Part shown: in pieces, positions 16,782 to 39,013 of the stretch | Position numbering within the stretch: the stretch's first letter is position 1 | Layout of the letters: every line of letters starts with the position of its first letter | IMG/VR virus record: IMGVR_UViG_3300011118_000009 | Location: 1-50,566 of that record | DNA: 50,566 bases | Source: a virus | Lineage: Duplodnaviria > Caudoviricetes | Reading direction: 5' to 3' (one strand) | Notes under the pieces: generated by a model | Database searches by the model: none | What the model saw: the letters and a program-made list of their open reading frames with translations, nothing else | What the model was told of the DNA's origin: nothing | Program-made: the position numbers and the translations under genes

Positions 16782-19700
16782 ATGCCTAAATATGATCCTT
16801 CTACAGACGTGCCCTTTGGGATTGCTGGAGCCGATTTTCCAATTTCTGTGTACGACAGGCCTCAGCTTGCATTCGGCAATCTACTTAAAGGCAATGTAGA
16901 TGCAGCCACCCGTGCTATTTTTTCTCCCCAAACTTTAACTCCTTCGGAAATGAAGACAGTTCGGGACACTCTTTTCCGAGGAAAAAAACCAAATCTAATT
17001 CTTAAAACTATTACAGATATCGCCACTAACCCACTTGTAATCATGGGATTAGCCGTGGGGTTATGGAAATTTCCTCTTGGGACCGCTCAACCACTACTTG
17101 AATTACGTCGTGGACTCATTCCTAAATCGGCAGCTATGGGAAAGATGATGTCTGGTTTACATGGAGCCATGATGAACCTCCGCAGTATTCCCGGGATGTT
17201 TGAGTCATTGCTTGGGGTTACTACAGAGACTACTAAGTTTATGGCTAAGTATGGAGATGATGCCAATGCTATTTTCTTAAAGACTGGCCGACTTTCCCGG
17301 GCGGAAGGTGCATTGGTGTCGGCGAGATTAGATGGGCTCCATAAATCTTCTCATTACATGGTTAAGGCTCTTCGGAATGAACCGGAATGGCTTGCTTTTA
17401 TGGGGGGAAAAGATGTCCCTATTGCATCTAATATACAAGGGGTTATGGATTCTCGGTTAGTGGGACTATCAGATCGACTCCGGGGATGGTATAATGCGAC
17501 GCGTAAGACTGTAAGTAAATCCCCGGAAGTTTTGGGTCGAGTTAGAAAGGCAGTAGAGAAAAAAGGGTTGCAGTTTGGAGACGACGTTGAAGATTATTTT
17601 CCTCGTCACGGTCAGTATAATAAATACTATAAGCGATCCATTCGAGGGACAACCGGAATTCAATATCGTACTTGGTTGCACAAGGAAACCGGAGCGATGG
17701 TTGGGAAAGAACAAATAGCTCGAACAGGTGGGTTATTTGCTAATCTGGACGACATACAGATGCTCGAACAATCCGGGGCAATTAAGCCGGGCTTTTCAAA
17801 AATGGTCAAGTCTATTATGACTCGAAGAAGTCAAGCATCCTCCGCAAAGGCAGGTGAAATTTGGGGAGATATTACACGAATAGGTCTGGACGAATCTCAA
17901 GCCCGGGTTGAATTTGTACGTAGAATGAGAGAATATTATACAAAGGGGGGCGGAAAACATCTCGACTTTGTTCGTCGGCTTGGTAATCCAAAGATGGCAG
18001 ACGATACTTTAGATTCAATGGCGGGGGCTTTGCAAGATGCAACATTTAAGGGCGGTGGTAAACTACAGAAAGAACTTTTTGAAATTGGAAGAGTTCTCGC
18101 GGAGCCAGCCCAATATACTTTGAATCCTTGGGACGCGACGGGTAGATATTTGAGTTCTATGGCGTCCTCGTATGCCTGGCATGGGACAGGCCTTGGTGAC
18201 AAAATTATGACCATTGCCAAGAAACCAGGGGTCTATAAAAATGCTCCCTATCTCGAATCATACCTATATGATGATATAATTCCCCATGTGCGGGGGTTGA
18301 AATCATATCAAGAACTCCAACGATCCATTTCTTTCTCTTCGGGGAAAGAGAAAATCTATAACTGGTTACAACAAACTCCAATAGCAGATCAGGTCTTGGG
18401 TAAAAAAGGAAAAGATTGGCTCCTGAAATATTTTGGGGATACATCTAAATCCCTATCTGCGGAGGGGGTCGGATCAAAAATAGCTCATTCTTTTTATCTG
18501 TCTACTCTTGGAACTAATATTTCTCCGGCCTCTAAGAACCTGCTACAAAACTTTCTTACCACGATGAATACTCCAGGAATTGGACCACAAGGTATTTATA
18601 GGGGATTGATGGGGGTTCGAGGGGGCGAAGGTGCATTGGGAAAGATGCAAGAATATCTCCGCATGATTACAACGGGGACAGGAACAAAAGCAGCTTTCCG
18701 CAAGGCATTCCCAGAATATATAGATGATATGGGCGATGCTTCTCAAATCGTAGAGTCAATGCTTGCCGGGGATGTCGCAAAAGAAGGAATAGCGGGGAAA
18801 TTTCTCGGGGTAAAAGGGAAATGGGAACAAATTAAGACGGCTATGCTCATGCCTTTTAGTACCTCGGAAGGGTTTAATAGGATAGTGGGGTATTATGCGG
18901 GGAGAAATTCACACCTGTTCCATAATGCAAGGAAACTTGCGGGGGCGTCCAATGCAGTAAAGAGTCAAATATTCAAAGAGGCGGGGCAAGTAGGTCAATC
19001 TCTTACAATGACCTCGCACTTTACTGGTGGTCCGTTGGGGATACCAAAAGCCCTAATCAATACATGGGCTCCTTGGCGACAGTTTATGCACTTTCCCACG
19101 CGATTTGCTGGTTTCTTACATGGTTCTCTTCGCATGGGGCCAGACCCCTCAAAGTTGGATTGGGGGACGATAGGGAGAACAGTCGCTGGTTCTACCGCCG
19201 CTTATGTTGGAGCGAGAAACTTGGCGGGGGTAGATATTTCATCAGGACTTATGACAGGAGCTTTGCCTGTTCCAACCTATGAAGGGGCTCCATTCTATCC
19301 CTGGCCGCTTGTACCACCGGCCTTGAGCGTAGCTGGTACGGCAGTTAAGTCTTTATTAACGGGGTCAACTGAGGGATTGGAGGGGGCAGCTTCTTTATTG
19401 GTCCCAGGCGGCGTTGCTGCACGTAAGGCATACCGTAGTTTGGCCCCTAAGTATGCCGATTATAAGAATAGAACGCCGGATGGCCGCATCCCACTCTATA
19501 ATGATTCTCATGCCTTGATAGGTACGATGTCGCCTATGCAGCTAACCCTTCGGGCGTTGGGCTTAAAATCATCTGGTTTAGCAGCGGAACAAGGGGCTGC
19601 TAAGTGGCTCTTGGCACAGCGAGAGAAACTCAGGGCCTATCGTCGGGATTATCTACAGGCTCTCACAGAGAACGACAACCGAAAAGCCGAAGACATACAA

Positions 19701-19928
19701 AGAGAATTTAGACGGGCATACCCTGAACTTGGACCGCTCCAGGTTAAGAAGTCCGATATTAGAGCTATTGAGAACCGAAGAGAAATATCCAGACTCCACA
19801 GGATTGAGAAAGGAGTCCCCTCGGCGTATCGACCGCTCTTTAGTCAAGTCCTCGGAGAGGCCAGCCTTGCTCGTGTCACAGAAGATATCGAATCCGGGTC
19901 AACGGGCCTCGAAGCTTATCTACAATAA
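16782..19928 (+). CDS. Large internal virion / DNA-ejection protein
   Basis: 1048 aa helical protein, last gene of the structural block, the usual position of the large podovirus ejection protein. Confidence 0.65.
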   Translation: MPKYDPSTDVPFGIAGADFPISVYDRPQLAFGNLLKGNVDAATRAIFSPQTLTPSEMKTVRDTLFRGKKPNLILKTITDIATNPLVIMGLAVGLWKFPLGTAQPLLELRRGLIPKSAAMGKMMSGLHGAMMNLRSIPGMFESLLGVTTETTKFMAKYGDDANAIFLKTGRLSRAEGALVSARLDGLHKSSHYMVKALRNEPEWLAFMGGKDVPIASNIQGVMDSRLVGLSDRLRGWYNATRKTVSKSPEVLGRVRKAVEKKGLQFGDDVEDYFPRHGQYNKYYKRSIRGTTGIQYRTWLHKETGAMVGKEQIARTGGLFANLDDIQMLEQSGAIKPGFSKMVKSIMTRRSQASSAKAGEIWGDITRIGLDESQARVEFVRRMREYYTKGGGKHLDFVRRLGNPKMADDTLDSMAGALQDATFKGGGKLQKELFEIGRVLAEPAQYTLNPWDATGRYLSSMASSYAWHGTGLGDKIMTIAKKPGVYKNAPYLESYLYDDIIPHVRGLKSYQELQRSISFSSGKEKIYNWLQQTPIADQVLGKKGKDWLLKYFGDTSKSLSAEGVGSKIAHSFYLSTLGTNISPASKNLLQNFLTTMNTPGIGPQGIYRGLMGVRGGEGALGKMQEYLRMITTGTGTKAAFRKAFPEYIDDMGDASQIVESMLAGDVAKEGIAGKFLGVKGKWEQIKTAMLMPFSTSEGFNRIVGYYAGRNSHLFHNARKLAGASNAVKSQIFKEAGQVGQSLTMTSHFTGGPLGIPKALINTWAPWRQFMHFPTRFAGFLHGSLRMGPDPSKLDWGTIGRTVAGSTAAYVGARNLAGVDISSGLMTGALPVPTYEGAPFYPWPLVPPALSVAGTAVKSLLTGSTEGLEGAASLLVPGGVAARKAYRSLAPKYADYKNRTPDGRIPLYNDSHALIGTMSPMQLTLRALGLKSSGLAAEQGAAKWLLAQREKLRAYRRDYLQALTENDNRKAEDIQREFRRAYPELGPLQVKKSDIRAIENRREISRLHRIEKGVPSAYRPLFSQVLGEASLARVTEDIESGSTGLEAYLQ

Positions 19929-20013: not shown

Positions 20014-20373
20014 ATGAAAGAACGAATTGAAATTACAGTTAAAGTAAATGGGGAAGTAGTGCCGCTATCCTCTCTCTCGGATGAGGCCATTAGCAATATC
20101 AAACAGCAAGAAAGACAGCAACTGGAGAAGAACGTTCCGGTATTCAGTAAACTCTCGAATCGTCTCGTTGTAAAATTGACTCCTACCGTAATAAAAACAA
20201 TGCGAGAATTAATAAGGCAACTGGACAGTGAGAACTACTACCCAGAAAAGGGAAGTTATATGTCTTTTGAGCCGAATGGGCTTGTTGGTACATATTATCT
20301 GGGAAAAACGCAAGCAGATGTTTTGTCGTCCTATTCCGGTGGATATCTGGAAGCTATTTTTCCGGGAAAATAA
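20014..20373 (+). CDS. Hypothetical protein
   Basis: 119 aa; TTGAAAGGA RBS. Confidence 0.65.
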   Translation: MKERIEITVKVNGEVVPLSSLSDEAISNIKQQERQQLEKNVPVFSKLSNRLVVKLTPTVIKTMRELIRQLDSENYYPEKGSYMSFEPNGLVGTYYLGKTQADVLSSYSGGYLEAIFPGK

Positions 20374-22982
20374 TGATTGAGTTTGAATCACATCCTGATT
20401 GTACGGAATGCCCACTGCACGAGATGGCAGTGCATCCGGGGATAGCTACTCGTCCGTTGTATGATAATCAAACCATTCAAAAGGATAGGGCTATTCTATT
20501 TGTTGGACAACATCCAGGGGGACTTGAAGACCGGGCTAACAAAGGATGGATTGGATACGGTGGGGGACTTCTTCGTACAATAATAGAGACCACTGGCTTG
20601 CAGAAGTTGTGTGATGTATTTCTATCGAATGCCTGTCGGTGTAAACCTCCGCAGGATGGTAGTATATCTCAAAGTCAAATTAGGATATGCCGAACTTTGT
20701 TGCAAATTGATGTTGAAGACTTACAGGCTCATTACAAAGAAGTTATTTTGGTAGGGCTGGGGGCAAAAGCAGCTTACAGTATTGCCAAGCTTAGTTCACT
20801 CAATAAAGCCCTGAAACAACAGGGAAGCATGGCAACTATGTTTACTATGCAGGGAGGTCCCAATGTCCATCCTCGAATGTTCTTTACTTATCACCCCGCC
20901 ATGCTCCATCCAATGAGACAACCTGCGAAAGTACGAGCAGTTGAATCACACTTTACACTTCTGAGGAGGTATCTCAAAGGAGAATTTATTCCAAATGATA
21001 TGGTAATAAACCCGGAGTTAGGAATACCTGTTCCAATTTGGTTGCCAACTCATGTTGCTTGTGATATTGAGACCTACGGAATTCTGGCGGGGAATGAACA
21101 GACTGTTTTCAATCCCATAAAGTCGAAGTATGTGGACGGATTTGATTTTGATGAACAGGTTGTAACTGTCAACTTTACTTGGCGTAGTTTGTCAAATGAA
21201 TTACGAACCGCTGTTTACGTTGTCAAAGACAGAAGACACATGCGGATTATTAGGGAGTGGTTTAAGCAATTGAGTCGGGGATATCATGTTCTTGTTGGTC
21301 AGAATATCAAATTTGATTTGGAGTTCCTTACTTGCTCAGATAAGGAACTCCGATATTGGATAGACCCCCGCAGGTTACGTGTTGATGATACAATGATTCT
21401 CAGTTTCTTGTTATATGAACAACAACCAGAAAAAGGATTAAAGGAACTGGCAATCTTACATGGAATCTCCGACTATGGAAAAGAAAAAGTGACCGGAAAA
21501 TCTGGGAATGCTAAGTCCCCTTGGGATAAGAACTTACATCACTATAATTGTTTGGATGGTGCAACAACGCTCGTTCTTTATTTTGAACTTCTGCGGAGGA
21601 TTGCCAAGAAGTATGGTGACAAGTCGGAGAAGTTATCGAAAGTTTGTGCTGATGTTCGCAACATGATTATTTGGGACACATTCGATTTGGATTTGAATGG
21701 TAGTTCTTTGGATATAAAAAAAGTAACTAAGTTTCATAATAAGCAAAAAAATTTATGCACTCGCATCTTTGATAGGGCAGAAAAAAAAGGATTAAAACTT
21801 GGGGGGAAAGGATCGGACAAACCATTGCGGGAATTTATGTTGGGGTGTTTAGATGAGGCTGGGTTATTGGATGACCCTCAAGTAGAGTGGACAAAGAAAA
21901 TGGGAGGCGTTTCTATTGGAGTTGAAAATGTAAAGCTTCTAAAGAAAAATTCTTTTGCAACTTCCAAGAAAAACTTAATTGCTCTTTTTCAGGGATATAA
22001 AGAACATAGTAAACTTGTTACTACATATACAAAACCACTTCTTGAAGATTCTCGGAAGGGAATTGTTACACGCTCTGACAATATTGGAATGGTCTATCCG
22101 TCTTGGTATCCAATCCCGAGTTATTTCGAGCGAGGAAAAAAAGAAGCCGAGACCAAGGGGCAAATACAGGGACGGTTTAGTTGTACGAAACCTGCACGAT
22201 TAACTGAACCCCATTCAATTAGGGATTGTTCTATATCACGGTGGAAAGGTGGGACGATTGCAGAATGGGATGTGTCCCAAGACCACCTGCGGATGGCAGC
22301 TATATTATCCGGCGATCCTCTTTTAATGGATGCCTATTTGAATCCAAAGGGAAGTATCCATACACAAACTGCTCTTACCTTATTTCCAGACGCGGATCCA
22401 ACTGATCCCGGGTGGAAAAAATCAGATATGTATAAATTGGGGAAGACCCTTAATTTTTTGGTTATATTCAAAGGGGGACCGGGAGCATTTCAATCGACTG
22501 CGTTAAGCGATGCTGAAGTAGAAGTTCCAATTAAATTCTGTGCGGAAGCAATTAACACATGGTATGAAAAACATCCTGTGTATAAACAATGGCAGGATTC
22601 AATGATTGACTTAGCAGCCGAGCAGGGATACCTTGTTTTACCTACGGGATGGAGTCGGACATTTGCATTAGGTCCGCAGGGAGTAGCAAATTATACCAAC
22701 GAGATTTGTAATTTCCTCCATCAATGTCCGTGTAGTCAAATAACACAATCCGCACAGTATCAGATAATGTGTACACTGCGGAGGTATCATTTGAAAACAG
22801 TCATTCCCTTGCAGATATATGATGCGGTATTTGCCGACATTTATCCCGGGGAAGAAAAAAATGTGGATGAAATCTATGGAGAAGCCATGACCCATCCCCC
22901 ATTGTTGAAAGTATTTGAAGAGTGGACGGGGCGATCAGTTCCATGGCTCTGGGAAAAGAAAACTTATGATACTATTTCCTAA
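20373..22982 (+). CDS. Family A DNA polymerase with N-terminal family-4 UDG-like domain and 3'-5' exonuclease
   Basis: UDG-like: CTECPL, FVGQHPG, SNACRCKPP, TYHPA. Exo I-III: DIET, NIKFD, YNCLD. Pol: GRFS, DVSQDHLR, KTLNF, IYDA. Confidence 0.92.
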   Translation: MIEFESHPDCTECPLHEMAVHPGIATRPLYDNQTIQKDRAILFVGQHPGGLEDRANKGWIGYGGGLLRTIIETTGLQKLCDVFLSNACRCKPPQDGSISQSQIRICRTLLQIDVEDLQAHYKEVILVGLGAKAAYSIAKLSSLNKALKQQGSMATMFTMQGGPNVHPRMFFTYHPAMLHPMRQPAKVRAVESHFTLLRRYLKGEFIPNDMVINPELGIPVPIWLPTHVACDIETYGILAGNEQTVFNPIKSKYVDGFDFDEQVVTVNFTWRSLSNELRTAVYVVKDRRHMRIIREWFKQLSRGYHVLVGQNIKFDLEFLTCSDKELRYWIDPRRLRVDDTMILSFLLYEQQPEKGLKELAILHGISDYGKEKVTGKSGNAKSPWDKNLHHYNCLDGATTLVLYFELLRRIAKKYGDKSEKLSKVCADVRNMIIWDTFDLDLNGSSLDIKKVTKFHNKQKNLCTRIFDRAEKKGLKLGGKGSDKPLREFMLGCLDEAGLLDDPQVEWTKKMGGVSIGVENVKLLKKNSFATSKKNLIALFQGYKEHSKLVTTYTKPLLEDSRKGIVTRSDNIGMVYPSWYPIPSYFERGKKEAETKGQIQGRFSCTKPARLTEPHSIRDCSISRWKGGTIAEWDVSQDHLRMAAILSGDPLLMDAYLNPKGSIHTQTALTLFPDADPTDPGWKKSDMYKLGKTLNFLVIFKGGPGAFQSTALSDAEVEVPIKFCAEAINTWYEKHPVYKQWQDSMIDLAAEQGYLVLPTGWSRTFALGPQGVANYTNEICNFLHQCPCSQITQSAQYQIMCTLRRYHLKTVIPLQIYDAVFADIYPGEEKNVDEIYGEAMTHPPLLKVFEEWTGRSVPWLWEKKTYDTIS

Positions 22983-23566: not shown

Positions 23567-23866
23567 ATGTCGATTAAAGTAACCAGGGTTGTAAATATTC
23601 GTACTTCGGAGTTCGATGTTTTCATTGGTCGTCCAAGTCGATGGGGCAACCCCTTCTGGATAGGGCCTTATAGGTCCAGAGATGCTGCAATTAAAGACCA
23701 CATGGATTGGTTAGATGGAAAATTAAAATCCACCGCAGGGCGGGAACCGCCTACAAAAGCAGAAATTAAAAAACATTTAACTGGCAAGAGACTTGGTTGC
23801 TATTGTAAACCCCAAGCTTGTCACGGGGATAATTACGTTGCAATATGTAGGGGGAAACATGGCTAA
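23567..23866 (+). CDS. DUF4326 family protein
   Basis: DVFIGRPSRWGNPF and GKRLGCYCKPQACHGD. Confidence 0.88.
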   Translation: MSIKVTRVVNIRTSEFDVFIGRPSRWGNPFWIGPYRSRDAAIKDHMDWLDGKLKSTAGREPPTKAEIKKHLTGKRLGCYCKPQACHGDNYVAICRGKHG

Positions 23867-24455
23867 AATACGAAAGACGGACATCTATCGTAGGTATAAG
23901 ATACCCACAGAGATAACAATACAGATTGATACTCGCGAGCAGTTTCCTATGTTGTTTCCAGACATGATAAAGATTGCCAATCCGGAACAGTCTTATTTAT
24001 TCCTGCCCATTCAAGTTGTGTCCCAACGAATCGGACTTGATTGCGGAGACTATAGGCTTAAAGAATATCCAACGGATTGTATTATTGAACGTAAAGCTGC
24101 CCAGCTTGAGATATACAAGAACCTAAATGAATCTCATGATCGTATCAGGCAAGCAAAAGCATTCCGTAAATTATCAGGGGCTTGTAAATATCCACTCTTA
24201 TTAATCGAAGCCTCCGCAGGGGAGTTGCTTTCTCCGAGTCCACGTATAAAGAACCCAGAGATTGTCCCACATCGCTTAGCTCTTGCCATTGCTAAATACA
24301 AATTCAATGTGATGTTTATTCCCTGGAAGAGTCGAAGTTCCATGACACGTAGGAAGGTTGGCACACTGTTGATCCATTTAATGTTGGGGTACTCACTTCA
24401 ATCTACTTTTGATGTACCACCAGTCTTGTTAGATAACCCTGCGGAGGAGGGATGA
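23859..24455 (+). CDS. ERCC4/XPF-type nuclease, probable junction resolvase
   Basis: IDTREQ, GDY, IIERK motifs. Confidence 0.85.
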   Translation: MAKIRKTDIYRRYKIPTEITIQIDTREQFPMLFPDMIKIANPEQSYLFLPIQVVSQRIGLDCGDYRLKEYPTDCIIERKAAQLEIYKNLNESHDRIRQAKAFRKLSGACKYPLLLIEASAGELLSPSPRIKNPEIVPHRLALAIAKYKFNVMFIPWKSRSSMTRRKVGTLLIHLMLGYSLQSTFDVPPVLLDNPAEEG

Positions 24456-24530
24456 TTTTTTAATGTGCACTGGGGTTTTGTTTGATAAATAGGAAACTAA
24501 AATATATTTCAAGAAAATAACTTTTTAGGC

Positions 24531-24558
24531 TTGACTATATGTGTAAATTTGGTATAAT
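24531..24558 (+). promoter_or_regulatory. Sigma70-type promoter
   Basis: TTGACT-16-TATAAT with extended -10. Confidence 0.7.
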
Positions 24559-24565
24559 AAAGGTT

Positions 24566-24692
24566 GATAGGGATTGAACGTTAAACCCAAACTAAAACAT
24601 AATATAAAGAACGTATTCGATCCCTTATTTTTAGACCTCCGCAGGATAGGGAGTCGATGATACAGTAGTACATTGGCTCCCTTCCATTTTTT
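24566..24692 (+). ncRNA. Putative structured leader or small RNA (two hairpins)
   Basis: Stems 24569-24582/24610-24625 and 24648-24659/24671-24682 contain G-U pairs; U-rich tail follows. Confidence 0.4.
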
Positions 24693-24710
24693 CTTTGAAA
24701 GGAAAGAAGA

Positions 24711-24911
24711 ATGAGCAAGAACCCCAAAGTGAAAAAATCAAGATACAAATCTCCGCCTGTGATCTTCGTCCCCGACGATACCTACGTAGATGATACAGGT
24801 CACTTAATCGGCACAAACGGTATATTCGTTGTAAGCCCAAAACACTACCTGGACATCCGGGCCGCACTCAAGTCATCACAGGAGGCCAAACATGATAAAT
24901 CCCAATCGTGA
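24711..24911 (+). CDS. Hypothetical protein
   Basis: 66 aa; TTGAAAGGA RBS. Confidence 0.55.
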   Translation: MSKNPKVKKSRYKSPPVIFVPDDTYVDDTGHLIGTNGIFVVSPKHYLDIRAALKSSQEAKHDKSQS

Positions 24912-25188
24912 CGCGAGCGAGGAAGTTCTACAGCAACACAAACAAGAATCCTACGAGCGGTTCCGGGTTCAGTTCGCTATGGCGGTCGAACAGAAGCTGA
25001 TTGACTTTGAAATGACGTGGGGTGATTTAGCTACTTGCATTAAAGGTCAAAAAACAGACGGTATTTTCATAAAAACACGCATTAAAAATGGGAGTTTATC
25101 TGCGGAGGGGATGAACGATATAGCCCATGTCTTTAGCTGTGAACCATATATTATACTCAGACCTCGACTTCCTTGGGTACAAACTTAA
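24892..25188 (+). CDS. XRE-like helix-turn-helix protein
   Basis: MTWGDLA...LSAEGMNDIAHVFSC pattern; AGGAGG RBS. Confidence 0.55.
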   Translation: MINPNRDASEEVLQQHKQESYERFRVQFAMAVEQKLIDFEMTWGDLATCIKGQKTDGIFIKTRIKNGSLSAEGMNDIAHVFSCEPYIILRPRLPWVQT

Positions 25189-25196
25189 TTTTTCCC

Positions 25197-25225
25197 TTGA
25201 CTTTGGTTTACCAATATGATATAAT
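25197..25225 (+). promoter_or_regulatory. Sigma70-type promoter
   Basis: TTGACT-17-TATAAT with extended -10. Confidence 0.75.
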
Positions 25226-25248
25226 ATACACATATTAAAAAGAAGATA

Positions 25249-26265
25249 ATGAACATTAATGAAATCCAACCAAGGCCATTTGAATGTCACCAGTCCAGTA
25301 TTGCAACTGCACATGGTTGTGAACGATGTTTCTTTTTTAAGGAGCGGTGGGGCGTCGTACTGCGAGGTGTCAAGGTAAAAACAGGGGCATCTCTTGGCAA
25401 ACTCTACCATAGATTTCAACACTTGGGTCCGGGACACGAGCAGGAAGTTCGAGCCGAGGTCCAGGGAATGCAAACAGACTTGATGGCCCGAGCGGACAAA
25501 GGCGAGGATTTGGATGGCGAGATGGTTCGGTTTGCAACTCTACTCACGACGCTTTACAACAAAGCCGAAGTGATGGCCCACTTATTCTGGGAACGCTACC
25601 CAACCCCGGATTATTTGAAAACAATCGGAACTGAAATCAAACATTCCATGACAATTCAAAACGGTCCTTTAGATGGAATGGTGTTGACTGGAACCATCGA
25701 CAAATTAACCCAAGACATTCGTAATGGAAATATTTGGGATCGGGACCATAAGAGTACCGGGCGTTCGCTGGATACTATCTTTGCTGGATTTCCTTGGTCA
25801 ACTCAAGCCAGAATCTACCGAATCTTGGCCGAGGATTGGATAGGCCAACACGAACAATCTAAAGTTGTGGGCTTTATTCTGGATGGGATATTAACACCGG
25901 GGATTAAACTCTGCAAGAAAGATGTCAAAAATGCAAAAGATTGGAATTGTTCCGAATCAGAAGCATACCTCCGCAGGGTTAAAGAGTGGTATGCTGCAAC
26001 TGGAACGGCCTCGATTCGATCCGAAGCGATGATGTACAATGAACCACTGTACTCTCGCGAGTTGCTGCATGAGTTGATGTTCATGAAAGAGCTCAGCAGT
26101 CGAGCCAATGATCCTAATGAATATAATCGGGACCCGTCGAGATTTCATTGTTTCCTCTACGATTCTCAGTGCGTTTATTATGACCTGTGTTCGTCGCCGA
26201 AAGTCAAGTGGCCGGAATTATTTGAAAACAAATATAAAATCAAATCTGCGGAGGAATCCAAATGA
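25249..26265 (+). CDS. PD-(D/E)XK exonuclease, Cas4/RecB-like, probable Fe-S cysteines
   Basis: C.R, G...H, GTIDK, DHKST, Q..IY and C-terminal C-x6-C-x5-C. Confidence 0.85.
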   Translation: MNINEIQPRPFECHQSSIATAHGCERCFFFKERWGVVLRGVKVKTGASLGKLYHRFQHLGPGHEQEVRAEVQGMQTDLMARADKGEDLDGEMVRFATLLTTLYNKAEVMAHLFWERYPTPDYLKTIGTEIKHSMTIQNGPLDGMVLTGTIDKLTQDIRNGNIWDRDHKSTGRSLDTIFAGFPWSTQARIYRILAEDWIGQHEQSKVVGFILDGILTPGIKLCKKDVKNAKDWNCSESEAYLRRVKEWYAATGTASIRSEAMMYNEPLYSRELLHELMFMKELSSRANDPNEYNRDPSRFHCFLYDSQCVYYDLCSSPKVKWPELFENKYKIKSAEESK

Positions 26266-26360
26266 AAAAATTGATTTGTAGTATACTTACTCTGCGGAGA
26301 CATTGGTTCAAACATTATCCCGGAGAGAAACGATATGTGCGGTGTCGCCTGTGTGGGTAG
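26262..26360 (+). CDS. Tiny Cys/His zinc-finger-like peptide (not in ORF track)
   Basis: MKKLICSILTLRRHWFKHYPGEKRYVRCRLCG; ATGA overlap and GGAGG RBS. Confidence 0.4.
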   Translation: MKKLICSILTLRRHWFKHYPGEKRYVRCRLCG

Positions 26361-26411
26361 ACGCCGAAAAGTATGTGGAAACAAAGAGAAAAGATTTTGA
26401 GGAGAAAAGTA

Positions 26412-27035
26412 ATGAGTGCGTACAAAACAATAATAATAACTTGGATCATAGCTGCAATAATTATAGCCTTTTTATGTTTATTCTGCGGAGGTTGTCAGGA
26501 TTCCTTTGGGTTGCGGTTTTCGCCGACTCAGGAGCAGAAACAATCTGCGGAGTTGACCAATCAGTTGGCCCGAAAAGTAAATGTGGATGGCACTGATCCC
26601 CTAAGTCCGGCGAGTAGAAAGCTCGTAGACGGCACAGCGACTTCCCTTGCTTATACCGGTAGGCCGCAGGTAGCTCCAAATCTCGATGAGTTTGATACGA
26701 TTAACAATCAGGCACAGGATGATGCGGTAAAACGACCCGATGTTGCAGGGACGATGGATTCTGCTTTGGAGATTGGACTCGGCATTGCGGCTTTGATGGG
26801 TGGGGCTGGGGGGATTAAGTTGGCCCAGGGAATAAAGAAGATTCATGGGAAGGCCAAAGCATTTAATGAGATCGTGTCCCAAAATGATTTGTACAAACGA
26901 ATGGCCTCCGCAGAGGAAGCCGTTAGATTCAAAAAAGCTTTCGCCGGGCAAACGGAAACCACGAGAAAATTCGTAGCAGAAGCTCGTGTCATAGATAAAA
27001 CCAGAATGGTAACTATTCCGAAGGAGAACGTATAA
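26412..27035 (+). CDS. Membrane protein / lipoprotein
   Basis: ATG 26412 with GAGGAG RBS; signal-like N-terminus ending LFCGGC; second Gly-rich hydrophobic helix. Confidence 0.7.
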   Translation: MSAYKTIIITWIIAAIIIAFLCLFCGGCQDSFGLRFSPTQEQKQSAELTNQLARKVNVDGTDPLSPASRKLVDGTATSLAYTGRPQVAPNLDEFDTINNQAQDDAVKRPDVAGTMDSALEIGLGIAALMGGAGGIKLAQGIKKIHGKAKAFNEIVSQNDLYKRMASAEEAVRFKKAFAGQTETTRKFVAEARVIDKTRMVTIPKENV

Positions 27036-27952
27036 TGGCCGAGCAACCAAAAACCACACCTGCGGAGGGAAATGTTACGATGGCTACGGCTCCAAATAAC
27101 GTCCCTGATATTCCAGCGGATTGGAAGAATCTGGCGGTTGCGTCCGGTTATAAGCCGAAGAAAGCGGAGGATTTGAACTTATGGATAGTTGGCCCGAGTG
27201 GAGAGGGAAAGACTACTTTTGAATCCAGTATTCCCAATCAACTCATCTTGGATTACGACAATGGAGCGGCAGGAATCCCTGGAACTCGTTCCAATCGAGT
27301 TTATGTCCAAAATTATGAACATTATATGCAAATTATGGACAAGCTCATTGTGGAGGGATTAGCGGGAAAGGCTCATTGGCATCGTATCTCAACAGATACC
27401 GTTGATGAATGGGTCGGGATGATTAAGAACCAGTTGCAGAAAGAGAAAGGAGTCGAGGACATTACAGAGTTCGGGAGTCAGGGACATGGATGGGGAATGA
27501 TTCGAGAGCGGTGTTGGTCGAAGCTACGAGAGTTGGAGAACGCCGGTTATGTCTGGTCTTGTGTGGGACATTTAACTACGAAGACAGAGACGAACCCATC
27601 GACTCACAAAGAGCGGACTGTTATTCGGGAATCTGTATTTCCATCTTTTGCCAAACAGATTACAACCCGAAGTGATTTCAAGTTGACGATTTATTGTGTC
27701 AATAAGGAGACTGAGAAAACAAAAAAACGGACGCTTCCGAGTGGTCAGGTCATTGAAGTTCCCGATGGAGTAGAACAGAAAGCAACCTATTACGTGGATT
27801 CTCTGACCACTGCGGAGAGAGATGGGAAGAGTAGGGGGGCTCTTACGATGGAGCGTAAATTTACCATTCCTCCTGTTAACGCCTGGGATTTATTTGTCGA
27901 GAAGTATAATACGGCGATAGAGCAAGCTAAAAAACAATACGGGCAATTGTGA
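27035..27952 (+). CDS. AAA_24 / Sak4-like ATPase (single-strand annealing recombinase)
   Basis: GPSGEGKTT Walker A; ILDYD; G.GWG; lies between exonuclease and SSB genes. Confidence 0.82.
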   Translation: MAEQPKTTPAEGNVTMATAPNNVPDIPADWKNLAVASGYKPKKAEDLNLWIVGPSGEGKTTFESSIPNQLILDYDNGAAGIPGTRSNRVYVQNYEHYMQIMDKLIVEGLAGKAHWHRISTDTVDEWVGMIKNQLQKEKGVEDITEFGSQGHGWGMIRERCWSKLRELENAGYVWSCVGHLTTKTETNPSTHKERTVIRESVFPSFAKQITTRSDFKLTIYCVNKETEKTKKRTLPSGQVIEVPDGVEQKATYYVDSLTTAERDGKSRGALTMERKFTIPPVNAWDLFVEKYNTAIEQAKKQYGQL

Positions 27953-28023
27953 AGAAACGTAGTTGGTCTCATCTTTGGGATTAACAAAGAAACAATATCA
28001 ATAATTTTTTGGAGAAAAGACAC

Positions 28024-28593
28024 ATGAGTGACATTAACTTTGAGCAAATGCTCGCACAATTCAATCAGGATTACCGCGAGGCCGAAGTATTTAATGACAG
28101 GATGCCGGACGATGGGAAGTATATCATTTCCCTGATTAAGTTGGATACTGGGACGGCAAAAGAAGGCGGAGCTCCCTGGATGAAGCTACGCGGTCGGATT
28201 GAAGACCCGCAGGATGCAACGTGGGGCGGCTTTGAATTCCCCGTTGGATTCTACTCTGCAAAGGCATTCGGCATTCTCAAGGGAGCGGTTAACGTATTGG
28301 CCGGAAAATCCGTCAATGATTTGGCCGAGGCTTATGAAGTCCTCAAAGCATCTCTTGGCAAGATCATCGAGGGAGAAGTCAAGACAACAACCTCCGCAAA
28401 GAACGGTAAAGACTATACAAATTGCTACATCCTGAAAGTGATCGACGAGGTGGCCTCCGCAGATGCCCAACAAGCCGAAGCTCCTGCCCAAGACCCAGCC
28501 ATAGTGGACCCGGCGACCGACGTTAATGATATTCCATTTACCGGCGACGGCGATGCTTCTGTTGGCGATACGAATCCCACAGAAGTTGGGTAA
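28024..28593 (+). CDS. Single-stranded DNA-binding protein (DUF669-like)
   Basis: PDDGKY...KNGKDYTN pattern; acidic tail containing DIPF. Confidence 0.75.
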   Translation: MSDINFEQMLAQFNQDYREAEVFNDRMPDDGKYIISLIKLDTGTAKEGGAPWMKLRGRIEDPQDATWGGFEFPVGFYSAKAFGILKGAVNVLAGKSVNDLAEAYEVLKASLGKIIEGEVKTTTSAKNGKDYTNCYILKVIDEVASADAQQAEAPAQDPAIVDPATDVNDIPFTGDGDASVGDTNPTEVG

Positions 28594-29821: not shown

Positions 29822-30090
29822 TGTGGCAGGATAACGTAAACGGAATGTTTGAATTTCTTAGTGCGTTCTTTGTCCTCTTGCATTGTGTAAAAATGTATAA
29901 GGATAAGAAGATCAGGGGCGTAAGCCTGTTGGCTGCTATTTATTTTACTGCTTGGAGCTACTGGAATTTGCATTACTATCCGCACCTTGAACAGTGGTGG
30001 AGTTTCGGTGGAGGGGCAACTACTACTATGGCCCACACTATCTGGTTTTCTATGATCGTTTACTATATTTGGAAGGAAAAACATGAATAA
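29821..30090 (+). CDS. 3-TM PQ-loop/SemiSWEET-like membrane protein
   Basis: Three hydrophobic helices; KMYKDKKIRGVS loop. Confidence 0.6.
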   Translation: MWQDNVNGMFEFLSAFFVLLHCVKMYKDKKIRGVSLLAAIYFTAWSYWNLHYYPHLEQWWSFGGGATTTMAHTIWFSMIVYYIWKEKHE

Positions 30091-30658
30091 TAAAATAGTG
30101 ACCTACACGGGAAAGGTTTTCGACCTACTTGATCCGAGACCGGAGACAGTGTGTATTGAAGATATTGCACACGCTCTGGCTCATATCTGTAGGTATACGG
30201 GGCATGTGCGGAAGTTTTATAGCGTGGCCCAACATTGTGTGTTAATTGCCCAGGCTGATCTACCGGGGGGAGCTTTACAGAGATTACTCCACGATGCCGC
30301 GGAGGCCTATATTGGAGATATGGCAAGTCCTTGGAAACAATTACTAAAGGTATTTGAATCACGTAATTGTTCAACATTGGGCAGCGGATTTCCGATATGG
30401 GTCAATGAATATGAACAAAAAATCCAAGACGTGATTGGAATAGCTTTAGATATTGACCTTTCTTTTTCTGCGGAGGTCAAAGAGGCAGATAATAGAATGT
30501 TTTCCACAGAAATACGGGATTTAATGCCACCTTCTAAGGAGTTTAAGTATTGGAAAGATAATCTGAAACCCCTGGATATTACGATAATTCCCCAGGACAC
30601 TGAACTCGCTGAGGCAGCTTTTCTAAACGAATATTGGAGGTTGAAAAAAAATGAGTAG
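30083..30658 (+). CDS. HD-domain 5'-deoxynucleotidase-like phosphohydrolase (YfbR/YfdR type)
   Basis: IEDIAHAL..ICRY.GH, YSVAQH, LLHDAAEAYIGD. Confidence 0.9.
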   Translation: MNNKIVTYTGKVFDLLDPRPETVCIEDIAHALAHICRYTGHVRKFYSVAQHCVLIAQADLPGGALQRLLHDAAEAYIGDMASPWKQLLKVFESRNCSTLGSGFPIWVNEYEQKIQDVIGIALDIDLSFSAEVKEADNRMFSTEIRDLMPPSKEFKYWKDNLKPLDITIIPQDTELAEAAFLNEYWRLKKNE

Positions 30659-33786: not shown

Positions 33787-34611
33787 ATGCGAAGGCGCGT
33801 ACTAACAAACAATATAATATGTGATGACTGTGAAGATGTGATAAGGGATTTCCCGGATAACTGCATTGACCTCATTGTTACCTCACCACCTTATGCTGAC
33901 CGTCGCAAGAAAACCTATGGTGGAATTCACCCTGACAAGTATGTGGACTGGTTCTTGCCCAAGTCAAAGGAGTTCTTGCGAATCCTCAAGCCCTCTGGAA
34001 CGTACATTCTCAACATTAAAGAGAAGGCAGAAAATGGAGAAAGGCACACCTATGTTATCAACCTTATTCTGAGAATGAAGGAACAGGGTTGGCTCTGGAC
34101 AGAGGAGTTTGCCTGGCACAAAAAGAACTGCTACCCTGGAAAATGGCCAAATAGATTTCGTGATGCTTGGGAGCGGTGCTTACAATTCAACAAACAAAAG
34201 AAGTTCAATATGTATCAGGAGGCGGTGATGGTTCCGATGGGAGGCTGGGCTAAGACACGCCTTCGGAATCTTAGTGATACTGACAAACGTCGGGACGAAT
34301 CAAAGGTCGGGAGTGGATTTGGGAAAAATATCTCCAACTGGATTGGAAGAGACAAAGCGTATCCGAGTAATGTCCTTCACTTGGCTACTGAGTGTGCAAA
34401 CAAGAATCATAGTGCTGCTTTTCCTATGGATTTGCCCACGTGGTTTATCAAACTTTTTACAAAGAAAGGCGATGTAGTTTTAGACCCGTTCTTGGGGTCT
34501 GGAACGACGGCCATTGCGTCAAAGCAGCTCGGTCGGAAGTATGTTGGAATTGATAATAATATGGAATACTGCAAAATGGCAGAGGATGCACTGCAAAAGG
34601 TGTCATTGTAG
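33787..34611 (+). CDS. Beta-class N4-C/N6-A DNA methyltransferase
   Basis: DLIVTSPPY, HSAAFP, VLDPFLGSGTT. Confidence 0.95.
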   Translation: MRRRVLTNNIICDDCEDVIRDFPDNCIDLIVTSPPYADRRKKTYGGIHPDKYVDWFLPKSKEFLRILKPSGTYILNIKEKAENGERHTYVINLILRMKEQGWLWTEEFAWHKKNCYPGKWPNRFRDAWERCLQFNKQKKFNMYQEAVMVPMGGWAKTRLRNLSDTDKRRDESKVGSGFGKNISNWIGRDKAYPSNVLHLATECANKNHSAAFPMDLPTWFIKLFTKKGDVVLDPFLGSGTTAIASKQLGRKYVGIDNNMEYCKMAEDALQKVSL

Positions 34612-34622: not shown

Positions 34623-34925
34623 ATGAAAAAGCTGAATATAAAAAACGTGTCACAATACGTTGAGCGGAATATTGGGTCTTTTCATCAAAAACGCATAAAA
34701 AGTCTCGATAACTTGGAGCTCTTAAAAATCCTTAAACGGAAGAATCCTTATCTGTTCAAAGCAAAATATGTGCTAACAGCCGAAGAAATTATCCGTGCAT
34801 TGGTTGACGCCCATATTTCATCAAACGAAGAAACAATTTTTGGGGATTGGCTCGAAGGTGCCTTGCTTTATCAACAAACAAATACAGCCAGTGCTGCCAT
34901 TGTAGAGGCCGAACAATCAGTATAG
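34623..34925 (+). pseudogene. Truncated type II restriction endonuclease (PmeII/EcoO109I-like N-terminus)
   Basis: KRKNPYLFKAK...AHISSNEETIFGDWLE, then unrelated-looking sequence and a stop at 100 aa; directly follows the MTase. Confidence 0.7.
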
Positions 34926-34998: not shown

Positions 34999-35730
34999 AT
35001 GAATATGGGCAAGCGAATTGATTTGACAGGGCAGAGGTTTGGTATGTTGAGGGTGTTAGAGCCTGCTCACAATCATAAGAAACATGGATGGTATTGGAAA
35101 TGCCTTTGTGATTGCGGAAAAACTACAGTTGTAGTTAATTGTGATATACGTAATGGCCACACTAAGACTTGTGGTTGTTCCCACAAAAGAACACAACGGA
35201 TAGATTTGAAAGGAAAAAGATTTGGAAGATGGTTTGTGTTGGATTATGCTTTTAATGATAGCCACCATAAATCATTTTGGAAGTGTCGATGTGATTGTGG
35301 AGTAATCAGAAATATAAACGGTACTCAATTACGGGCTGGCCGATCAAAGTCTTGCGGGTGTGGCCGGATAGATGCAATTCAATTATCACCAACAGTAGCG
35401 GCTTTTAATGCTTTATATTCTCAATATAAATTAGGAGCAAAACAACGTGGATATAGTTTTAGGCTATCTAAAAAGAAATTTCAAAGGCTAACAAAGCAGA
35501 ATTGCTATTATTGTGGTGTAAAGCCAAGTAATATATTTAATCCACATCGTAGGTCAAACGGAGTTTATATTTATAGCGGCATTGACCGTGTAGATAATTC
35601 TAAAGGATATAAGAAAGATAATGTTGTGGCTTGTTGTGCAATGTGCAATCGAATGAAAATGGTTTATTCTCAAGAGGAGTTTCTTGAGCAAGTGAAGAAG
35701 ATTTACGAACACTCAATGGAAGGAAAGTGA
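34999..35730 (+). CDS. HNH-type endonuclease with two N-terminal Cys-rich repeats
   Basis: Two DL.G.RFG...W.C.CDCG...K.CGC units; CYYCG, GIDRVDNSKGY, NVVACCAMCN. Confidence 0.88.
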   Translation: MNMGKRIDLTGQRFGMLRVLEPAHNHKKHGWYWKCLCDCGKTTVVVNCDIRNGHTKTCGCSHKRTQRIDLKGKRFGRWFVLDYAFNDSHHKSFWKCRCDCGVIRNINGTQLRAGRSKSCGCGRIDAIQLSPTVAAFNALYSQYKLGAKQRGYSFRLSKKKFQRLTKQNCYYCGVKPSNIFNPHRRSNGVYIYSGIDRVDNSKGYKKDNVVACCAMCNRMKMVYSQEEFLEQVKKIYEHSMEGK

Positions 35731-35731
35731 A

Positions 35732-35902
35732 ATGAGTTTAATTGCAGCTATAATATTTTTGGTGGTATATTTTCTACCAGCACTTGTAGGCTGTCTTAAT
35801 AAGAAGAAAAATGCAGGTGGTATATTTATGCTTAACCTGTTACTTGGTTGGACAGGAATCGGGTGGATCATTGCCCTTATATGGGCTGTTTGTATGGATT
35901 AA
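35732..35902 (+). CDS. imm: Superinfection immunity protein, T4 Imm-like (not in ORF track)
   Basis: YFLP.......N...I..LNLLLGWTGIGWIIALIWA signature. Confidence 0.88.
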   Translation: MSLIAAIIFLVVYFLPALVGCLNKKKNAGGIFMLNLLLGWTGIGWIIALIWAVCMD

Positions 35903-35935
35903 ACCCTACAACACCCTGCCAGATAGCAAGGGCAA

Positions 35936-35961
35936 GGACTTATGTAGTTTATAAGTGAGAG
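35936..35961 (+). repeat. 26-bp direct repeat, copy 2
   Basis: GGACTTATGTAGTTTATAAGTGAGAG. Confidence 0.85.
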
Positions 35962-35980
35962 ATAATCTGCGGAGGTAGGA

Positions 35981-36235
35981 ATGAAAGGTTCACGAGTAAC
36001 AAGGCTGTCGGCGATGGGATCGCTGGATAGGTTGGATTGCAGGGACTTGATTCAGTTGTATTGTAATGTGGCGAATTTGTTGCCGATAGATGAACGTATG
36101 TTGTTTCACCTGTATTATAAGCACGGGTATTCTACTATTGAAATTGCACAATTGCTGATGAAACATGATGGGACGATTCATAGGCGGTTGATGAAAATAG
36201 GTAGGAAATTGACAGATATGTTGGAGGTAAAGTGA
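35981..36235 (+). CDS. Sigma70 region-4-like HTH protein
   Basis: LPIDERMLFHLYYKHGYSTIEIAQLL....GTIHRRL. Confidence 0.8.
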   Translation: MKGSRVTRLSAMGSLDRLDCRDLIQLYCNVANLLPIDERMLFHLYYKHGYSTIEIAQLLMKHDGTIHRRLMKIGRKLTDMLEVK

Positions 36236-36339
36236 TGGATATTGTGGAGTGTTTTATTGCCGTGGGCTTGTTGTTGGCGATGTGTTTGAAACCAGACAAA
36301 CGTAGGCAGCAATAGTGCTACTATATGAAAGGATTTGAT

Positions 36340-36504
36340 ATGGATTACACAATTACAAAGAATCACGACGGCAGCGTTACAATTAGTACAATTTACGACG
36401 GAGTAAGACGGCATAAACAGTATTTTGGGTATACTGAAAAACAAGCTGAATCGTTATTTCATCAGTCTTTAATAAAGTGCCGTATTGAAAGGGTAATAAA
36501 ATGA
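36340..36504 (+). CDS. Small hypothetical protein (54 aa, not in ORF track)
   Basis: AAAGGA RBS; MDYTITKNHDGSVTIS...YFGYT. Confidence 0.55.
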   Translation: MDYTITKNHDGSVTISTIYDGVRRHKQYFGYTEKQAESLFHQSLIKCRIERVIK

Positions 36505-36647
36505 AGACATACCACTTTACAATTACATTAGGCGGCTCAGGAGAAGATGAAAGTGCTGCGTGGGTTGATGCGTGTGAATCATTCGCACTTGATCCAGGGA
36601 TGCCTGATACTGAACTGGTAGAACTTGTGGAAGACGACGAGGAATGA
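36501..36647 (+). CDS. Small acidic protein (48 aa, not in ORF track)
   Basis: ATGA overlap; ends VELVEDDEE. Confidence 0.5.
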   Translation: MKTYHFTITLGGSGEDESAAWVDACESFALDPGMPDTELVELVEDDEE

Positions 36648-37633: not shown

Positions 37634-39013
37634 CTAAAGATTTATAATATCAGCGTGGACAGCCAATTGCACTCCAGCATACGCCCAATATCGCTTTTTT
37701 CCTTTTTGGTATCGAGTTCTCTTCGCTGTTTTGAAGACTCGTTTTAGCTCTCGACTAAAATTACGATCCGACAACGGGTTATATCCCTTCGCCCTACACC
37801 AGTTCCTGTATGTCGTGTATATGGTCTGGGTTGCAACCCCTCCTACGGAGTTTAGCTTAAACACATAATTCTCCGTCAGGAACACACCAGCGGGGTTAGC
37901 AGCGGCCTTAAACTCGCCCCACATCGTATTACTATGCTTAGGCGTAACAAATATCCCCTGTTTGGTTAAGTCCTGGAGCCCGCGGACCGCCCAATTAAAG
38001 ATACCAGGTAACTCGGCCTCCAACTTCCCCTTCAACTTAATATCCATATACTCGGGATTTTCCCTGTCAAAGAACGCCAACTTCAACCGTCGCCACGTCC
38101 CATTCGACTTATCCGTAAATGCAGGGAACGAATTGGCCGAAATCATTAGCTTCGCCGTTGGACTGGCCGTGAAGGGGGGCAGATACTTCCGTTCATACGT
38201 CATAAGGTCTTCCCCGGTCCACTCCTTAATCAACCCCTCCGCCTGCGGAGTAATTTCTTCCTCGGCATCCCCCGCAATATTAACCATCTTCCCATACGAA
38301 ATACTCATTGAAAATCTATCACTAAACCTCCGAATCGGAACCGCACAACAATTAGTCTCCCCCAGCATCTTCTTAATCATGTGAGCATACGTGCCCTTCC
38401 CTGTCCCCGCATCTCCTATACACAGTAAAAAACTCTGATACTCATTCGTTGGCAGTAGCAAATACCCGGCCCACTGCTGCAATAGCCTCTCCGTAGCCTT
38501 ATCGCCCCTGGTAACCTCCGCAAGAAACTGTATCCATCTTGGGCATTCAGCTTGTGGTTTATAGCCATAGGGTAGTTTGACTACGGAAAAGAAGTCCGGT
38601 GTGGCTTTTGTAAAGCTGAGTTCAGAAACTTCATCAAACAAAACAATGCCATTTTCCATCGTAATTGCTCGAATCGGAACCTGTATTGTGTCCTTGTCTG
38701 TCTCCGTAAGCCATGTATTTAATACCCGGGCTTTCATTAAGTATGTGGGAATATTAAGGTTATGTTTTACCAATTTAACTAAATCGGGGGTTGAAAGCAT
38801 TCCGATACTACTAATAAATCCCGATAATTCAGCATCTATATCCGATGCAACGCTATAAACCCCATTATCCCATACGTAAAACTCATCCCGCCAGGAAACC
38901 AATTTCTGCTTCCCCCCAAGATCATCGTTGGTCTTAATCGTTCCAAAACACTGCAAATAACTATCTGCAATCTCTTTCGGCGATTTAGCTTTCTTCTTCT
39001 CTTCCTTACTCAC
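37634..39013 (-). CDS. D5/P4-type SF3 helicase (D5_N + ATPase + winged helix), no primase domain
   Basis: ECPRWIQFL, GDAGTGKGT, KLMISANSFP, DKSNGTWRR, YRNWCRAKG. Confidence 0.92.
   Translation of the reverse strand: MSKEEKKKAKSPKEIADSYLQCFGTIKTNDDLGGKQKLVSWRDEFYVWDNGVYSVASDIDAELSGFISSIGMLSTPDLVKLVKHNLNIPTYLMKARVLNTWLTETDKDTIQVPIRAITMENGIVLFDEVSELSFTKATPDFFSVVKLPYGYKPQAECPRWIQFLAEVTRGDKATERLLQQWAGYLLLPTNEYQSFLLCIGDAGTGKGTYAHMIKKMLGETNCCAVPIRRFSDRFSMSISYGKMVNIAGDAEEEITPQAEGLIKEWTGEDLMTYERKYLPPFTASPTAKLMISANSFPAFTDKSNGTWRRLKLAFFDRENPEYMDIKLKGKLEAELPGIFNWAVRGLQDLTKQGIFVTPKHSNTMWGEFKAAANPAGVFLTENYVFKLNSVGGVATQTIYTTYRNWCRAKGYNPLSDRNFSRELKRVFKTAKRTRYQKGKKRYWAYAGVQLAVHADIINL

Follow-up and report, generated by a model that had tools for sequence, protein, structure and literature searches.

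The replicative DNA polymerase of the phage represented by IMG/VR record IMGVR_UViG_3300011118_000009 belongs to a clade of family A enzymes in which the glutamate and tyrosine that select for the sugar of the incoming nucleotide have been exchanged for histidine and phenylalanine. The record is a linear sequence of 50,566 bases with ca. 93% completeness (CheckV) that was analyzed over its whole length and is called the window in the following. In Escherichia coli DNA polymerase I (Pol I), the residues in question are E710, the steric gate that excludes RNA building blocks, and Y766, and both are textbook-invariant in A-family polymerases. The phage enzyme instead carries His638 and Phe699, accompanied by Asp637 in place of I709 and Tyr687 in place of R754. 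With a probability of roughly 0.55, we read it as a polymerase that still needs a primer and uses dNTPs but whose sugar pocket has been rebuilt, so that sugar selectivity and fidelity would be shifted quantitatively and no new reaction would have been acquired.

The enzyme is encoded by an open reading frame (ORF) of 869 amino acids at 20373..22982 (+) that combines, in a single chain, a domain resembling the uracil-DNA glycosylases (UDGs) of family 4 with a 3'-5' exonuclease and a polymerase of family A. Pfam profiles match the UDG domain (PF03167, residues 37-181, E-value 2.5e-11, 44.3 bits against a cut-off of 24.3) and the polymerase domain (PF00476, DNA_pol_A, residues 481-841, 3.9e-19, with 69.3 bits where the cut-off is 34.3), while phrog_17 "DNA polymerase" spans residues 35-843 (3.8e-50). 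A search against solved structures linked the N-terminus to family-4 UDGs (ca. 3e-9) and the C-terminus to Bst Pol I (1.3e-6). The AlphaFold2 model of the ORF, which was built with 31 homologues as input, is confident (mean pLDDT 88.9, pTM 0.87), and the best structures retrieved with it by Foldseek are of the Pol I type (target-normalized TM scores 0.74-0.80): 8jrb from Aquifex (E-value 6e-26), 9qsc from an apicoplast polymerase, Bst, and Klenow. Membership in PF00476 thus goes along with a score above the curated cut-off, a Pol I fold, both catalytic aspartates, the motif B lysine, and the equivalents of R668 and Q849, whereas the Glu710-Tyr766 pair (H638/F699), E883 (A818), and R754 (Y687) as canonical family A traits are absent. 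Exactly one PF00476 match exists in the whole record, and no second polymerase was recognized in Pfam and PHROG scans of the larger window ORFs, though many ORFs had no match. Given that the catalytic and proofreading residues are intact, that the protein is under purifying selection, and that the genome yielded no other polymerase, this ORF is the replicative DNA polymerase of the phage and must replicate DNA.

The substitutions were first noticed in a by-eye comparison with Pol I, and we therefore compared E. coli K-12 polA with an alignment of 31 family sequences (A1) using hhalign, which aligned 494 columns (Prob 99.6, E-value 1.2e-23) and left motifs A, B, and C free of gaps. In motif A (DVSQDHLR, 22269..22292, +), D633 corresponds to the catalytic D705, D637 to I709, and H638 to the steric gate E710. 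In motif B on the O helix (MYKLGKTLNFLVIFKG, 22428..22475, +), Y687 corresponds to R754, K691 to K758, F695 to F762, L696 to G763, F699 to Y766, and K700 to G767, followed in motif C (QIYDAV, 22812..22829, +) by Y816 for H881, the catalytic D817 for D882, and A818 for E883. Outside these motifs, R601 equals R668, H663 equals H734, and Q784 equals Q849. Compared to Pol I/Klenow and Bst/Taq, the phage enzyme is therefore alike in fold, the catalytic aspartate pair (D705 and D882), K758, F762, R668, Q849, H734, and the DEDDy exonuclease, yet it differs from E. coli Pol I by I709D, E710H, R754Y, Y766F, H881Y, E883A, and the replacement of TGR by QGR and of PNLQN by PARLT. Its exonuclease motifs Exo I (DIE, residues 231-233, 21063..21071), Exo II (NIKFD, residues 311-315, 21303..21317), and Exo III (YNCLD, residues 391-395, 21543..21557; all +) are complete, and D231, E233, D315, and D395 are invariant in A1. 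In the AlphaFold2 model, the strand formed by residues 628-633 stops at D633 and is followed by a helix from residue 637 onward, the layout typical of motif A, while motif B lies on a helix at residues 685-698 and D817 at the turn of a beta-hairpin.

All substitutions in motifs A, B, and C listed by the first-pass annotation are consequently real, as is its statement that both catalytic aspartates, the motif B lysine, and Exo I-III are intact: the profile alignment reproduces the alignment by eye without restoring any canonical residue, translation of the given coordinates yields the given peptides within the polymerase ORF, and the structure prediction yields a Pol I-like fold. The loss of PNLQN that it had also reported is genuine as well, but the stretch concerned (GRFS...PARLT, i.e., GQIQGRFSCTKPARLTEP, 22158..22211, +), in which R601 is kept and PNLQN is replaced, lies just upstream of where that annotation had the feature begin.

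To place these changes in a family context, we drew on two sets of homologues, one from a search that returned 141 proteins with the best 120 listed (closest 90%-identity clusters), the other from an exhaustive search of 50%-identity representatives with 5,767 matches at E<=0.001 and 409 at the stricter limit of E<=1e-30; the listing comprised 150. From the 264 stored proteins that were aligned to the family HMM, 247 covering motifs A to C were kept; the 17 dropped entries were E. coli Pol I and 16 fragments that lacked motif A, B, or C or filled less than 600 columns. With few exceptions, the listed proteins are metagenomic UDG-exonuclease-PolA fusions of ca. 850-900 amino acids, and none of them is named after a cultured phage. 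Megablast against the cultured-phage collection found no near-identical DNA, and none of the 149 cultured-phage records found by tblastn covered at least 80% of the query or reached 60% identity, so the enzyme has no cultured relative there. A prophage and host search with one genome per species gave only a single locus on a 17.7-kb contig of a metagenome-assembled genome (MAG), from which we infer no host.

Two layers of substitution can be separated in this alignment. The first is common to the family: E883 is replaced by Ala in 155 and by Ser in 64 sequences and kept in only 14 of 247, G763 is replaced by Leu, G767 is usually Lys, Arg, or similar, the Thr of TGR has become Gln (with Q599 invariant in A1), PNLQN gives way to PxxQTxP in A1, and H881Y is a trait of the whole UDG-PolA family. 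Because these changes are family-wide, and because motif C also reads HDA in the polymerase of phage N4 (which retains SLE, R754, Y766, and PNLQN), they say little about the chemistry of this particular phage.

The second layer is specific to one group. Asp-His at positions 709/710 occurs in 94 of the 247 full-length homologues, a share that over-represents this clade since the homologue search lists the closest 90%-identity clusters, and only three of the 150 listed 50%-identity representatives (P0060, P0145, and P0193) have it. All 94 also carry Tyr754 and Phe766. A single further sequence among the 247 has His710, the protein P0095 with Ser-His, Arg754, and Phe766, while Glu710 is found in 152/152 homologues outside both His lineages. 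The two motif B residues are less exclusive, with Tyr754 in 19 and Phe766 in 55 of these 152 Glu-gate members. D637, H638, Y687, and F699 are each identical in 94/94 clade members although identity to the query drops to ca. 49%, which rules out chance or sequencing error as the origin of the Asp-His state and indicates purifying selection on it. In a survey of 81 sources (80 related viral loci and the window), motif A is readable in 76, with 22 Asp-His (21 loci and the window), two Ser-His, one Ile-Asp, and 51 Glu gates, the latter divided into 44 IE, 5 LE, 1 ME, and 1 VE.

We then contrasted the 94 Asp-His with the 152 Glu-gate members for positions that are fixed inside and rare outside the clade. 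In the TGR/PNLQN stretch these are Q597 (E. coli T664), R609 (L676), and E612 (I679), each in 94/94; the others are E631 (S703) two residues ahead of the motif A aspartate, S661 (D732) two residues ahead of H734 in the motif that now reads SIH (22353..22361, +), the residues H783 (M848), P786 (T851), and C787 (A852) around Q849 in motif 6 (NFLHQCPCS with Q784 kept, 22710..22736, +), and F820 (V885) following motif C. Altogether, at least 11 active-site-proximal positions were co-fixed in the clade besides the gate residues. F762 is kept in 93 of 94 members. H783 is found in 86 of 94 and replaced by Ile or Leu in the remaining eight, so it would be non-essential to a candidate metal site formed by H638, D637, H783, and C787. 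Of the changes listed by the first-pass annotation, I709D/E710H together with R754Y and Y766F are clade-specific as a set, and those in the xDA motif C, G763, G767, PNLQN, and H881 are family-wide. As positions 709/710 are those altered in the laboratory to change sugar specificity (PMC4215692), its inference of altered substrate specificity is a reasonable one, but His is bulky, unlike the Gly or Ala by which the gate is opened.

The phylogeny of the gate residues was inferred with FastTree on the 247 sequences after blanking the four trait columns. All 94 Asp-His sequences form one clade (support 100) that is nested among relatives with Ile-Glu, Arg, and Tyr, and a quick IQ-TREE tree of 44 sequences also recovered the Asp-His clade (SH-aLRT 100) while grouping the Ser-His protein P0095 with two Ile-Glu sequences (SH-aLRT 99). 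When the Asp-His and Ser-His sequences are constrained to be monophyletic, the log-likelihood drops by 60 units (AU p=0.014), though this group was chosen after seeing the tree. His710 therefore seems to have arisen twice, both times together with Phe766, whereas the tree implies about eight origins of Y754 and about 28 of F766.

How such a pocket could work is suggested by the alignment and by known structures. The hydrogen-bonded pair of Glu710 and Tyr766 was turned into a His-Phe pair, in which we propose that His638 would fill the space of Glu710 and that its imidazole would form a floor under C2' of the incoming sugar. The Tyr/Phe gates of B-family polymerases and reverse transcriptases act as just such a floor. 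Phe699 would follow the loss of the partner of the Tyr hydroxyl, and the change of Ile709 to Asp would shift the negative charge by one residue to a place near R601 and Q784. The replacement of Arg754 by Tyr and about ten further changes in the TGR, PNLQN, DIH, and motif 6 regions would belong to the same rebuilding. The recurrent combination of His710 with Phe766 fits the hydrogen bond between Glu710 and Tyr766 in PMC3715850, a study that regards both residues as universally conserved among A-family polymerases and describes Klenow Y766F as behaving like wild type. The relocation of charge to position 709 is likewise a plausible compensation because Bst E658 sits in an electrostatic cluster with R615, Q797, and D830 according to the review PMC10520511. 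Altered sugar selectivity is plausible, with synthesis presumably still templated by DNA and dNTP specificity presumably retained.

Several observations weigh against a reading that keeps the enzyme this close to an ordinary dNTP polymerase. An unchanged function is not the default here because E710 and Y766 are described as universally conserved, Klenow E710A and E710Q are poor mutator enzymes (PMC3715850), and in Taq only Asp is reported to be tolerated in place of the gate Glu (PMC4215692). Taq positions 614/615, which are equivalent to 709/710, are also recurrent targets in evolution toward rNTP and 2'-modified substrates (PMC4215692), and the many co-fixed changes around the active site of the clade are more suggestive of altered function than of drift.

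The main alternative would be that the rebuilt pocket adaptively relaxes or changes sugar selectivity and thereby permits incorporation of rNTPs or 2'-substituted nucleotides or efficient extension of RNA, e.g., under dNTP scarcity, and we consider this possible if tentative. It would explain why precisely those two positions changed that were altered in laboratory evolution for rNTP or 2'-modified nucleotide use, where all variants cited include a steric-gate mutation (PMC4215692), it would fit the contribution of both E710 and Y766 to discrimination between dNTPs and rNTPs (PMC10201439, PMC3715850), and it would sit well with the co-fixed neighboring positions and the apparent double origin of His710 with Phe766. 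However, the laboratory-evolved Taq variants carry Gly at the gate, which opens it, while the His of our clade, fixed by natural selection next to an intact proofreading domain, has no less bulk than Glu. F762 holds the sugar against the gate and is nearly invariant in the clade, the proofreading exonuclease is intact, and neither RNase H nor ribonucleotide-repair genes set the clade apart among ten genomes that we compared in full (five Asp-His, one Ser-His, and four Ile-Glu; nine whole records and the window). In T7 RNA polymerase, moreover, a Tyr-to-Phe change at the equivalent motif B position favors dNTPs, which also speaks against relaxed selectivity. A more specific version, in which the Asp-His/Phe pocket would use ribonucleotides or 2'-substituted nucleotides alongside dNTPs to finish replication when the host or a defense system deprives the phage of dNTPs, strikes us as doubtful, though if true it would give the first case in nature of an A-family DNA polymerase lineage whose steric gate was re-specified. 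At the opposite end, the changes could be compensated, near-neutral drift with the same specificity and fidelity as in the Ile-Glu relatives. The wider family indeed tolerates the loss of E883, G763, G767, PNLQN, and the Thr of TGR, Y754 and F766 arose repeatedly, and the net charge at 709/710 is unchanged, but we find drift very unlikely given that the uniform Glu710 outside the two His lineages marks this position as one that is not free and that His appeared only twice, each time with Phe766.

Two further possibilities had been raised by the first-pass annotation, namely use of modified dNTPs and priming, and neither gained support. Adaptation to a non-canonical dNTP, as in the replaced or modified bases of phages with DpoZ or of the SP15/SPO1 type, could account for Phe at motif B position B4 (equivalent to Y766), which is common to both DpoZ clusters and called DpoZ-distinctive (PMC10201439), for the UDG-PolA architecture that is found in phages with T-modified DNA (PMC13697223), and for the change of the catalytic UDG Glu to Gln in the clade. 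It could also explain an HD-domain 5'-deoxynucleotidase (YfdR/Dmp-like, 30083..30658, +; phrog_318 3.8e-55, PDB 2gz4 5.2e-13) that is present in 5/5 Asp-His genomes and 0/5 others as the sole family splitting perfectly with the clade. Yet this split represents one event of shared ancestry and therefore no independent evidence, as these context contrasts are phylogenetically non-independent, and the nucleotidase is a common phage gene whose homologues appear in 325 phage records, Stx and Rhizobium phages among them. Many phages with such homologues are not known to carry modified DNA. Phe766 is likewise not tied to the His gate, as its presence in more than a third of the Glu-gate members shows, and the changed residues presumably line the sugar/phosphate side of the pocket and not the base edge. 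PurZ (PF00709) is absent from 5/5 clade genomes while the positive control was detected in 14/14 genomes, and a Pfam scan of 30 ORFs revealed no thymidylate-synthase-like, dUTPase, deaminase, or kinase domain. Three encoded DNA methyltransferases (MT-A70, N6/N4, and C5) act on A and C and hence argue for ordinary A and C in the phage DNA. A Z-genome, for which Phe at B4 and an HD hydrolase resembling DatZ might have spoken, was rejected on the same grounds of missing PF00709 and a nucleotidase of the common YfdR/Dmp type. The genome context contains nothing pointing to a replaced or modified base, and we regard this possibility as unlikely. Priming de novo by the polymerase at the dispersed 9-mer CTGCGGAGG, as a substitute for a missing primase, is highly improbable. 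No primase domain was recognized in the window, where many ORFs remained unmatched and could hide one (relatives were not scanned for primase), and a D5-like SF3 helicase (DUF5906, Pox_D5, D5_N; 37634..39013, -) resembles "DNA primase" PHROGs in nothing but their C-terminal parts and is thus without a primase domain. The 9-mer is present in 57 copies against ca. 0.4 expected, but equally abundant 8-9-mers exist in canonical-gate relatives (G006-G009), which lack the D5-like gene as well, and we know of no family A polymerase that primes. A connection of the His gate with the lack of a primase is unsupported; the D5-like helicase occurs in just 2/10 related genomes and is accessory.

The polymerase domain is preceded by the UDG-like domain (20373..20990, +; Pfam, translation), in which C10, C13, C90, and C106 are all kept, presumably as ligands of an Fe-S cluster. 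Its motif A, which is GE(A/G)PG in family-4 enzymes, reads VGQHPG and thus has Gln46 at the place of the catalytic Glu of active relatives, and Gln occupies this position in 82/94 clade members (with five gapped) while Glu is found there in 69% of Glu-gate relatives. The motif B histidine, His174 in YHP, is nearly invariant in A1. In the characterized phiLo enzyme, E53 of motif A and H178 of motif B are catalytic (PMC13697223), and the glycosylase of the Asp-His clade is therefore probably impaired.

Fusions of UDG and PolA are already known from an N4-like group (cluster 17 of Czernecki et al. 2023) and from SPO1-like and SP15-like phages (PMC10201439, PMC13697223), and the His-gate clade is a new variation within this architecture. 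At TGR and PNLQN, the family of the window enzyme is unlike all of these known fusions. The N4-like enzymes resemble ours in length (ca. 860 amino acids), a degraded UDG motif, Phe at B3, and a motif C of xDA, and N4 has a similar order of functions from polymerase over exonuclease and Sak4-like ATPase to SSB. The N4 polymerase differs by retaining the Glu gate, R754, Y766, and PNLQN, and the UDG of the N4-like group lacks the hairpin bearing the catalytic His, whereas the window protein keeps H174 and has lost only the motif A Glu. Profile comparison aligned 603 columns with the N4 polymerase (hhalign Prob 97.8, E-value 8e-13), which is weaker than with Pol I. Synteny with N4 was considered and dismissed: N4 replication proteins gave only chance-level tblastn matches (E-values 0.025-1) outside the module and none with phmmer, N4 gp39 found nothing in the window by tblastn, and the window has no ORF of the size of the N4 virion RNA polymerase.

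SP15-/SPO1-like enzymes share the same UDG-exonuclease-PolA chain (Missoury et al. 2026, PMC13697223), and their UDG Glu and His are kept in the canonical-gate relatives of our clade. These proteins are larger (1142-1306 amino acids), and the SP15-like ones are marked by two sizeable inserts, a longer C-terminal domain, and a UDG that is active (E53, H178), while the window enzyme with its 869 amino acids has neither inserts nor this domain and carries Gln46. Neither T modification nor PolX/ligase partners were indicated by the scans made of the window. DpoZ of phiVC8-like and Wayne-like phages shares the Phe at B4 with our enzyme but co-occurs with PurZ, which the clade genomes lack, and the parts of the DpoZ literature covered hold no report of a changed steric gate. 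The gate Glu is conserved across all 19 clusters according to the text of PMC10201439 and to PMC3715850, and searches of the literature found neither a natural nor an engineered His at position 710. In several distant relatives (L033, L035, L048, L061, L063, L064, L067-L069, L074, and L076), the UDG-like and exonuclease-PolA parts are separate ORFs that neighbor each other in some loci but lie several kb from one another elsewhere, and the fusion has therefore been split or assembled more than once.

Downstream of the polymerase follows a replication and recombination module on the plus strand (23793..28593) with an ERCC4-type nuclease (23793..24455), an exonuclease (25249..26265), an AAA_24/Sak4-like ATPase (27035..27952), and SSB (28009..28593), all assigned by Pfam/PHROG and with families present in 10/10 of the (near-)complete genomes compared. 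The ten genomes have ca. 17 core gene families in common including this module. MT-A70 and DUF4326 genes are also found downstream of the polymerase, while the HD 5'-deoxynucleotidase, a metallophosphoesterase, the N6/N4 and C5 methylases, a SLOG-domain protein, and the terminase lie farther downstream. Directly upstream of the polymerase, a protein of 1048 amino acids (16782-19928, +) without any Pfam or PHROG match is conserved in 10/10 genomes and 22/36 distant loci.

Some other features of the window and its relatives deserve mention. An ORF of 100 amino acids (34623-34925, +) that directly follows the N6/N4 DNA methylase (33787-34611, +) matches the profile of the EcoO109I restriction endonuclease (2e-32) only over the initial 78 of its 198 positions, as would be expected if the gene were truncated. 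A stretch of ca. 1.9 kb (35730-37634) contains only small ORFs and none of at least 90 amino acids, adjoins the only large minus-strand gene, and may be a regulatory or origin region; GC skew falls around 36-40 kb, and four copies of CTGCGGAGG lie at 36850-37174. No tRNA or Rfam match was found anywhere in the window. Among the near relatives, a protein of ca. 410 amino acids with weak AAA-type matches (G005-G009, e.g., L019:18002-19258) is found in 9/11 with a canonical gate and 1/15 clade sources (14 loci and the window), and it may be the replicative helicase of the canonical-gate relatives.

The 9-mer itself looks at least as remarkable as the polymerase. Its 57 copies, compared to an expectation for the whole window from simple arithmetic, are distributed over the plus (32) and minus (25) strands with a median spacing of ca. 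700 bases, and 46 of them fall within ORFs including the polymerase gene (e.g., 20646 (-), 21591 (+), and 22776 (+)). Copies on the sense strand are mostly in one reading frame (22/26), and G is avoided at the three positions 5' of the motif (1, 0, and 1 of 57). CTGCGGAGG ranks first among the 9-mers of 5/5 complete clade genomes, as do its 8-mer cores among the 8-mers of 13/14 clade loci of at least 12 kb. Since canonical-gate relatives have their own lineage-specific hyper-abundant 8-9-mers, among them CCTCTGCAG, CCTCAGCAG, GCCCCGCAG, CCCCTGCAA, GGGACCACC, and CAGTGGGG, this class of repeats is unlinked to the state of the gate. We see in it a family-wide motif that might perhaps be a Chi-like, priming, or nick site.

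A diverse clade under purifying selection has thus swapped both E710 and Y766 while keeping its catalytic and proofreading residues. Together with the independent second origin of His710 and the Ile-Glu sister enzymes, this clade forms a natural test set for the design of sugar selection. If selectivity has changed, these enzymes would be scaffolds for modified-nucleotide polymerases and would bear on how phages respond to defenses that target the nucleotide pool. If it has not, the "universal" Glu-Tyr pair would be just one of several workable solutions.

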